Made by a program: the position numbers and the translations under genes. Shown in pieces: positions 26,600 to 28,111 of a stretch of 64,000 bases of DNA. Every line of letters starts with the position of its first letter. Positions within the stretch are counted from its first letter, which is position 1. Below the pieces are notes generated by a model. It saw only the letters and a program-made list of their open reading frames with translations, was not told the DNA's origin and ran no database searches. Source of the stretch: Nitrosomonadales bacterium (GTDB taxonomy: Bacteria > Pseudomonadota > Gammaproteobacteria > Burkholderiales > Methylophilaceae); assembly GCA_038110565.1 (NCBI GenBank), contig JAYNJX010000003.1:13325-77324 (forward strand), written 5' to 3'.

Positions 26600-28111
26600 A
26601 TGATCCTTAAGATAAAAAGAAAAGAATTAAAACTGACGCTATCTCAAGTTGCGGAAAAAATTGGCGTTGACGTTGGTAATTTATCAAAAATTGAACAAGG
26701 TAAATTGCTTCCATCAACCCATGTTTTAATGAAATTAGCAGATTTCTATCGAATCTCAACAGACTCTATCCTAGGCAAAATAGATAAAAATCAAAATTTT
26801 GTGTCACATTTTAGATCCGCGGCACCTTATATTCATATTTATAATAATAAAATATTTGTCATTGCATTTGATGGCCACTCTTTAACTGATAGTCAATTCA
26901 ACTCAATTGCAACAGACATTAATTTACTTCATGGTTTAAATATAAAAATTGTTTTGGTTCATGGAATTAGACCATTCATAGACAAAAGATTATCCAAGAA
27001 TAAATTCAAATGCACCTTTGTAAACAACCAGAGAGTAACATCAAAAGACATGATTCCTGATGTTATTGAAACCAACGGATTAGTGAAAACTAAAATTGAA
27101 GCCTTCTTATCTTCAAATATTTATCAAAATAATATTGCCAAATCTGAACTCAAGATTTCATCTGGAAATTTTATTATGGCCAGACCTGCCGGAGTGATCA
27201 ATGGAACCGATATGGAAAATACAGGCATTATTAGAGAGGTAAACTCAAACGCAATTAAAGAAAAAATCGCACAAAATGAAATTGTAATCATTTCACCAAT
27301 TGGATATTCACCGGTTGGTGAAATTTTTAATCTTCCATATGAAACAACAGCATCTGAAATTGCAAGCTCTATAAATGCGGATAAACTTATTTATTATATC
27401 GATCAAAATGGCATTCAAAACAAAAGGGGGGAATATCTTCCAGAGTTAACTTTAAAAAAATGTCAAAATTTATTACTCCATTTAAGAGGAAATAGTGCAA
27501 AAAATTTTATTTCTGATAGCTTAATCAATATCCTTAATGCTGCAAATAAAGCACTTCAGAATGGAGTAAAAAAAATACATCTAATAAATAGAAACCTTGA
27601 GGGGTCAATCTTAGAGGAGCTCTTTACAAACAAAGGGAGTGGATCAATCCTTACAGAAGATAATTTAGAGATATTTAGAAAAGCCAAAAAAGAAGATGCT
27701 AAATTTATAGAAAAAATAACAAAACCTCTTGCTGAAAAAAATATACTTGTTGACAGAACATTATTGGATATAGAAAATGAAATTGAGAATTTTTATGTGC
27801 TTGAATTTGATCAAAGAATTATAGGCTGCCTAAATATAAAAAATTTTAAACATGAAGCTGAAATTGGGTGCTTTGCTATAAACAATAATTATCAAAACCA
27901 AGGTTATGGAGCTAAATTATTAAATTATGCAGAGATAGAGTGTTTAAAATTAAATGTTGAAAGATGTTTTATTTTAACGACACAGTCAGAACATTGGTTT
28001 ATTGAGAACGGATATAAGCATACTGACCTCCAAATGCTTCCAAAAGAAAAAAGAGATAAATATCAATTAAGTAGGAACTCGAAAATTTTATTTAAAAGTC
28101 TTAAAAGATAA
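26600..28111 (+). CDS. argA: N-acetylglutamate synthase (AAK+GNAT) with fused N-terminal XRE/Cro-type HTH domain
   Basis: aa 1-59 form an HTH_3-like domain ([23 protein letters not shown]). ArgA follows: [58 protein letters not shown]. Confidence 0.93.

Follow-up and report, generated by a model that had tools for sequence, protein, structure and literature searches.

An XRE-ArgA gene fusion across Methylophilaceae, probably an autoregulating enzyme-repressor

Enzyme-regulators and the ArgA family

To our knowledge, only a handful of enzymes that are also DNA-binding regulators have been characterised, and they belong mostly to cofactor synthesis or catabolism; PutA, for instance, represses its own gene. 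The protein considered here, in which an XRE-type head is joined to N-acetylglutamate synthase (NAGS, ArgA), would work like the trigger enzymes NadR, BirA, PutA and the archaeal RbkR (PMC5397151, in part). It differs from them in being the committed enzyme of an amino-acid biosynthesis, with a likely sensor in a separate allosteric site, a predicted hexamer as scaffold and its own transcription unit as the sole target found. In BzdR, from a betaproteobacterium, an XRE head was recruited onto an enzyme fold (a shikimate-kinase-like domain), but BzdR lost catalysis whereas the fusion keeps all active-site residues checked and so falls outside the BzdR type (PMC3602430, in part). Prophage CI-type repressors (HTH_3 plus peptidase S24) are the closest unfused relatives of the head and, like the candidate sites described below, their operators lie around their own gene start; in the fusion, however, a metabolic enzyme replaces the S24 domain and the gene is fixed in the core genome. 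Classical ArgA (N. gonorrhoeae 2R8V/3D2P; PRK05279) has the same AAK and GNAT domains, arginine site and catalytic residues, and the fusion adds to it the N-terminal XRE head and paired palindromes.

The N-terminal helices of Neisseria NAGS interlace about a two-fold axis, and arginine binds at the end of the helix and shifts it; with arginine, the ring contracts by ~20 A and widens by ~10 A (PMC4490483, in part). The E. coli enzyme is fixed as a hexamer by arginine (PMC5146650, in part), and those of Neisseria and Pseudomonas are hexameric with or without it (PMC4490483, PMC5146650, both in part). The portion of the 2015 NAGS family review used here does not mention a DNA-binding NAGS (PMC4490483), and no paper on an XRE-ArgA fusion was found in the open-access literature. 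The NCBI record SNR64184.1 carries the automatic name XRE regulator / acetylglutamate kinase / synthase. The architecture has therefore been recorded without having been characterised, in line with the original prediction, which knew of no characterised ArgA of this kind.

The fusion gene, its enzyme part and its distribution

The window is the whole stretch of DNA analysed (64,000 nucleotides) and belongs to a genome of 1.1 Mb and 33% GC. Homologues with names indicate Methylophilaceae, and a genome of this size and GC content would fit the OM43 group. In the window, the fused argA sits between rsmE and argB, with the following features:

26600..28111, plus strand: XRE-HTH::ArgA fusion gene, 503 aa, ATG at 26600, a single uninterrupted ORF
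26600..26773, plus strand: XRE/Cro-C1 DNA-binding domain, residues 1-58 (Pfam HTH_3; five helices in the AlphaFold model)
26669..26701, plus strand: recognition helix region, residues 24-34, with L28, S29 and E32 invariant (134/134)
26774..26797, plus strand: short linker of low model confidence, with a length range of ~34 residues across Methylophilaceae
26798..27655, plus strand: AAK domain, opening with the N-terminal helix (residues 67-81) whose counterpart interlaces subunits in the Neisseria hexamer
27617..27646, plus strand: arginine-site motif E340-S349 (plus K262 and Y77), by alignment to Neisseria NAGS
27662..28108, plus strand: GNAT catalytic domain, with R386, E421, C424, QxxGxG 432-437, T460, R492 and S494
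28120..28986, plus strand: argB (acetylglutamate kinase), starting 8 bases past the argA stop

It is likely that argA and argB are co-transcribed. Within the argA coding sequence, an inverted repeat of 14 pairs followed by a T run (27290-27324) resembles a terminator.

The original prediction described one 503-aa reading frame with an XRE head in frame with a full ArgA, and the profile searches agree. Pfam places HTH_3 at residues 3-55 (E 1.2e-12, 48 bits against a cut-off of 23), AA_kinase at 84-330 and Acetyltransf_1 at 391-462, and the NCBIfam ArgA equivalog PRK05279 covers residues 63-501 with 461 bits against a cut-off of 344. The AlphaFold model (34 sequences, mean pLDDT 83.6) starts with five short helices, which a linker of low confidence (62-64) joins to the ArgA fold, and the best match of the enzyme part in both sequence and fold is Neisseria NAGS. 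With its five-helix HTH_3 fold, in which R7, E32 and the recognition helix are conserved, the head belongs to the XRE/Cro-C1 group, and by every sequence test the fusion is a member of classical ArgA. Its Pfam domains, ArgA equivalog and catalytic residues together give the composition expected of a trigger enzyme.

When the Neisseria NAGS residues (PMC4490483, in part) are mapped through sequence alignment, the catalytic and glutamate residues R386, E421, C424, T460, R492 and S494 are found to be kept (Neisseria R316, E353, C356, S392, R425 and S427), with Thr here in place of the Ser of S392, together with the acetyl-CoA motif QxxGxG at residues 432-437. The arginine site is kept as well, with K262 and E340 (Neisseria K201 and E270) and ELFTNKGSG at residues 340-348, so that the predicted full ArgA with both of these motifs is now located and aligned. 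The consensus of the arginine-site motif is E-(L/I)-(F/M)-(T/S)-x-x-G-x-G-T, its final position being Ser here and Thr in 31 of the 34 aligned fusions. All 34 have K262, E340, G346, G348, E421 and R492, and the mapped arginine-site and catalytic residues are mostly invariant among them. Tyr77 (26828-26830) is the N-helix equivalent of Neisseria Tyr17, which we take to have a role in arginine binding, and it is Phe in 6/34 aligned fusions. As judged from these residues, the enzyme looks intact. As argJ was present in 30/30 Methylophilaceae genomes checked, the arginine pathway is cyclic and its entry flux is set by ArgA and ArgB.

An assembly artefact is ruled out by independent metagenome contigs and by conservation across the family. 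A read check across the HTH-enzyme junction had been proposed with the original prediction; in 3/4 metagenome runs from four other studies the junction is bridged by a single contig with no indel (X7 26570-27713, X6 26671-27142, X8 26721-27962). ArgA matches were obtained in 288/301 Methylophilaceae genomes, and in 189/189 of the high-quality ones, with a single match in nearly all. Among the 150 Methylophilaceae matches listed (145 further ones lie outside the list) the head is present in all: 145 align from residue 13 or earlier, and the five that start at 63-65 carry an in-frame head once fetched. In a sample of 301 genomes of the order, seven of the 150 matches listed start at residues 1-6 and all seven are from Methylophilaceae; the head was not found among the 143 other-family matches listed, all of which start at residue 28 or later, and of the five that start earliest, the three that were fetched have no such head. 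The taxonomic survey suggested earlier thus gives a fusion shared by the Methylophilaceae relatives and seen in none of the other-family matches listed, and it looks like a single family-wide event in the Methylophilaceae ancestor.

The fusion is kept in OM43 and Methylopumilus genomes of 1.1-1.4 Mb, and cultured Methylobacillus species possess it. The original idea of a feature of streamlined genomes does not hold, since genomes of 3-3.7 Mb carry it too. A start of translation at the internal GTG at 26801, considered earlier as an alternative, is also ruled out: this codon is Val68, within the hexamer-forming N-helix, and its column is unconserved, being I, S or A in many relatives.

The DNA-binding head and the paired palindromes

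Across 134 loci, R7, L28, S29 and E32 of the head are invariant and N27 is conserved in 98%. In 20 sister pairs, pN was 0.010 for the recognition helix, 0.069 for the whole head, 0.048 for the enzyme and 0.221 for the linker, which is unconserved. By this measure selection acts more strongly on the recognition helix than on the enzyme, and the head looks functional; an unconserved recognition helix had been named beforehand as a finding that would speak against the fusion being a regulator, and the opposite was obtained.

Among the nearest unfused heads, 11/19 scanned matches are HTH plus peptidase S24 repressors and 3/19 are fragments of the fusion itself. The closest relatives, CI/LexA-like repressors, have 47-59% identity, and the best phage match is a CI-like repressor with 49%, so the head was probably derived from a prophage CI-type repressor. 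No free-standing copy of the head was found beside unfused argA in 89 loci, bar one unrelated weak match. In one close relative with an unfused argA (L296:1682-2807), a gene for a 374-aa phage-like XRE repressor lies divergently and directly before argA, in the place of rsmE. This repressor differs from the fused head, yet its position shows that this is a place where mobile repressors insert.

Upstream of the fused argA, two copies of TG(T/C)A-N5-T(A/G)CA with AT-rich flanks recur across Methylophilaceae. In the window, they fall inside the stretch 26530-26610 that had been put forward for binding tests:

26543..26555, no strand: distal palindrome TGTA-TATAA-TACA, predicted operator, overlapping the last rsmE codons and a -10-like TATAAT
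26585..26597, no strand: proximal palindrome TGTA-AAATA-TACA, predicted operator, 42 bp from the distal one, ending 2 bases before the ATG and holding a -10-like TAAAAT
26563..26592, plus strand: sigma-70-like promoter candidate with 9/12 consensus matches, from which a leaderless transcript would begin close to the ATG
26524..26552, plus strand: second promoter candidate, by consensus matches

Both -10 candidates fall inside the palindromes, although the promoter calls are consensus matches alone, fewer than chance would give in an AT-rich region, and hence weak. No Shine-Dalgarno-like sequence was found before the ATG in 26582-26602, and a -10-like hexamer lies 7 bases upstream of it; this lineage may make a leaderless transcript.

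A site matrix was fitted on 57 fusion loci and 80 further family loci were held out, of which 4 were dropped for short upstream DNA and 76 scored. Both sites exceed 8 bits in 61/76, and the pair beats 200 dinucleotide shuffles at p<=0.01 in 69/76, with L382 scored as a miss though both of its sites are present; the loci are related to one another, so that the counts overstate independence, and they were drawn from among the better-scoring matches. With a matrix built without this clade, the pair takes the first two ranks among all sites of the 1.1-Mb genome, scoring 19-20 against 11 for the next intergenic site. On the other hand, the best single site upstream of unfused argA is at most 6.8 bits in 69/69 regions, including four at 31-33% GC, and the 20 closest unfused loci, mostly of rsmE-argA order, have neither this head nor the paired site. 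The paired palindromes are therefore missing before 89 unfused argA genes and present where the head is, and such a co-occurrence of a conserved operator candidate with a DNA-binding domain is the pattern of a trigger enzyme. The sites also persist at loci where rsmE is not adjacent.

The spacing of the two sites over 134 loci is 27-32 bp in 87, 41-42 in 11, 50-52 in 26 and other in 10, that is, about 3, 4 and 5 helical turns, in classes that comprise only a few lineages. In the 73 loci with a spacing of 29-31 bp, the distal site begins with a -35-like hexamer, and 17 bp further, immediately before the proximal site, comes the best -10 match; the ATG is inside the proximal site in 15/134 loci. 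Such a placement over predicted -35/-10 elements and the start codon is the layout of a repressor. Several GC-rich genera have a low score for one of the two sites. In one genus, three loci (L412-L414, 1466-1546) carry a third palindrome upstream of the fused gene, with spacings of 32 and 30 bp; three palindromes would match the three head pairs of a hexamer. Helix residue 25 covaries with an operator base in raw counts (98/118), but the signal does not reach significance when independent pairs are compared, and GC content follows it nearly as closely.

As for other targets, no paired site was found before argD-argF-argG (21 genomes), before argC, argJ, argH or carA (30 genomes each), or before separate argB (14/14); argB directly follows argA in the other 16 of 30 genomes. 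The regions upstream of the other arg genes and carA hold scattered single sites (best 13.0 bits), and strict-pattern single matches outside argA, in five genomes, fall in unrelated places, mostly coding DNA. The paired-site pattern, which permits only a spacing of ~30 bp and is blind to the 42-bp pair of the window's genome, matched 52/121 genomes with 0 control matches; the 30 loci read were 19 argA, 10 metW and 1 elsewhere. The metW matches (L390, L399-L402, L404-L406, L409, L410; ~1498-1546) lie in its first codons, just after metX, nearly all in one genus, and are probably due to chance rather than a second target, given the coding DNA and the GC-rich spacer. With no paired sites before the other arg genes covered, regulation by the protein appears to be limited to its own argA(-argB) unit.

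In most family genomes argC follows the ribosomal genes rplM-rpsI (L196-L225; L221 for the window's genome) and argJ often follows cysS, the names of these neighbours being assigned tentatively from their N-termini. The argC and argJ steps may simply be expressed alongside housekeeping genes.

Autoregulation and its alternatives

On the evidence of the head and the sites, it is very probable that the fusion regulates its own gene in some way. A slightly better than even case can be made for the specific proposal that the ArgA-XRE protein acts as a repressor of argA, and of argB where this gene comes next, by binding to both palindromes at its own predicted promoter, and that arginine strengthens the repression; for arginine as co-repressor, taken alone, the sequence data give about the same modest advantage. 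The fusion would assemble as an ArgA-type hexamer in which each pair of heads reads one palindrome, and a single oligomer would bridge two sites that are separated by 3, 4 or 5 helical turns and block RNA polymerase. Since the head is attached to the N-terminal helix that arginine moves, arginine could alter two-site binding; the least certain step is that arginine at the AAK site would change ring shape or oligomer state and thereby raise this binding, the feedback inhibitor doubling as co-repressor. A prophage CI-type head, presumably fused once in the Methylophilaceae ancestor, would thus have made the ArgA hexamer a one-protein feedback circuit, in which the same arginine-driven change of the ring stops catalysis and clamps two phased operators. 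This fuller picture falls a little short of an even chance, and so does its corollary of a trigger enzyme that senses through its allosteric rather than its active site. The variable, unconserved linker speaks against tight mechanical coupling between arginine site and head, and feedback on the enzyme would by itself be enough to preserve the arginine site.

The strongest alternative, which we consider unlikely, is an autorepression blind to the ligand: the head would bind the palindromes at high enzyme level and hold ArgA(B) at a set level, and arginine would act on catalysis only. The operator evidence fits it equally, a single target suits a dosage loop, the linker is long, variable and weakly selected, and the Neisseria and Pseudomonas enzymes are hexameric irrespective of arginine. 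However, paired sites in helical phase suggest bridging, which would be sensitive to ring shape, and the head is joined to the very helix that arginine moves.

It is improbable that the own gene is regulated by another signal or with another sign, be it occupancy by acetyl-CoA, glutamate or N-acetylglutamate, or a release of binding by arginine. The substrate sites are intact, and RbkR responds to its co-substrate CTP and is a proposed activator (PMC5397151, in part); but the overlap of the sites with the predicted -35/-10 and start codon is that of a repressor, and if arginine released the protein, a biosynthetic step would be under positive feedback.

Still less probable is a vestigial or structural head, with the palindromes being promoter elements or sites of another factor. 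The left half-site does resemble a -35 hexamer and the spacer a -10, and the distal site in this lineage shares bases with the rsmE stop; yet the recognition helix is more conserved than the enzyme, the sites persist without an adjacent rsmE and vanish at the same syntenic spot where there is no head, and promoter function leaves two full palindromes unexplained.

The last reading, the wide form of the original prediction, has the fusion take the place of ArgR and govern the entire arginine regulon; it is largely refuted, as among the arg units and carA covered, paired sites were found before the fused gene only and the window's genome has no other strong intergenic site. ArgR is a hexamer, and the fusion resembles it in outline (arginine as likely co-repressor, paired AT-rich palindromes, predicted hexamer) but has neither an ArgR domain nor a multi-gene regulon, sites before most arg genes and carAB being absent. 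The expected lack of argR was indeed found, with ArgR above the cut-off in 0/151 Methylophilaceae genomes, but it is also 0/201 across the order, so that a link between the fusion and loss of ArgR is not specific; among Proteobacteria, ArgR is confined to gammaproteobacteria (PMC5343134, in part).

The fusion is real and Methylophilaceae-wide, and it is probably an autoregulating enzyme-repressor. With the predicted operator defined to the base and carriers among cultured Methylobacillus, the proposal that arginine-bound ArgA represses its own unit is directly testable. If true, the committed enzyme of arginine synthesis would join the characterised enzyme-regulators and would be the first regulator to be named for the arg genes of an order that lacks ArgR. 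It would also be a natural, catalytically intact intermediate of the path from enzyme to regulator that was rebuilt artificially in the BzdR work.
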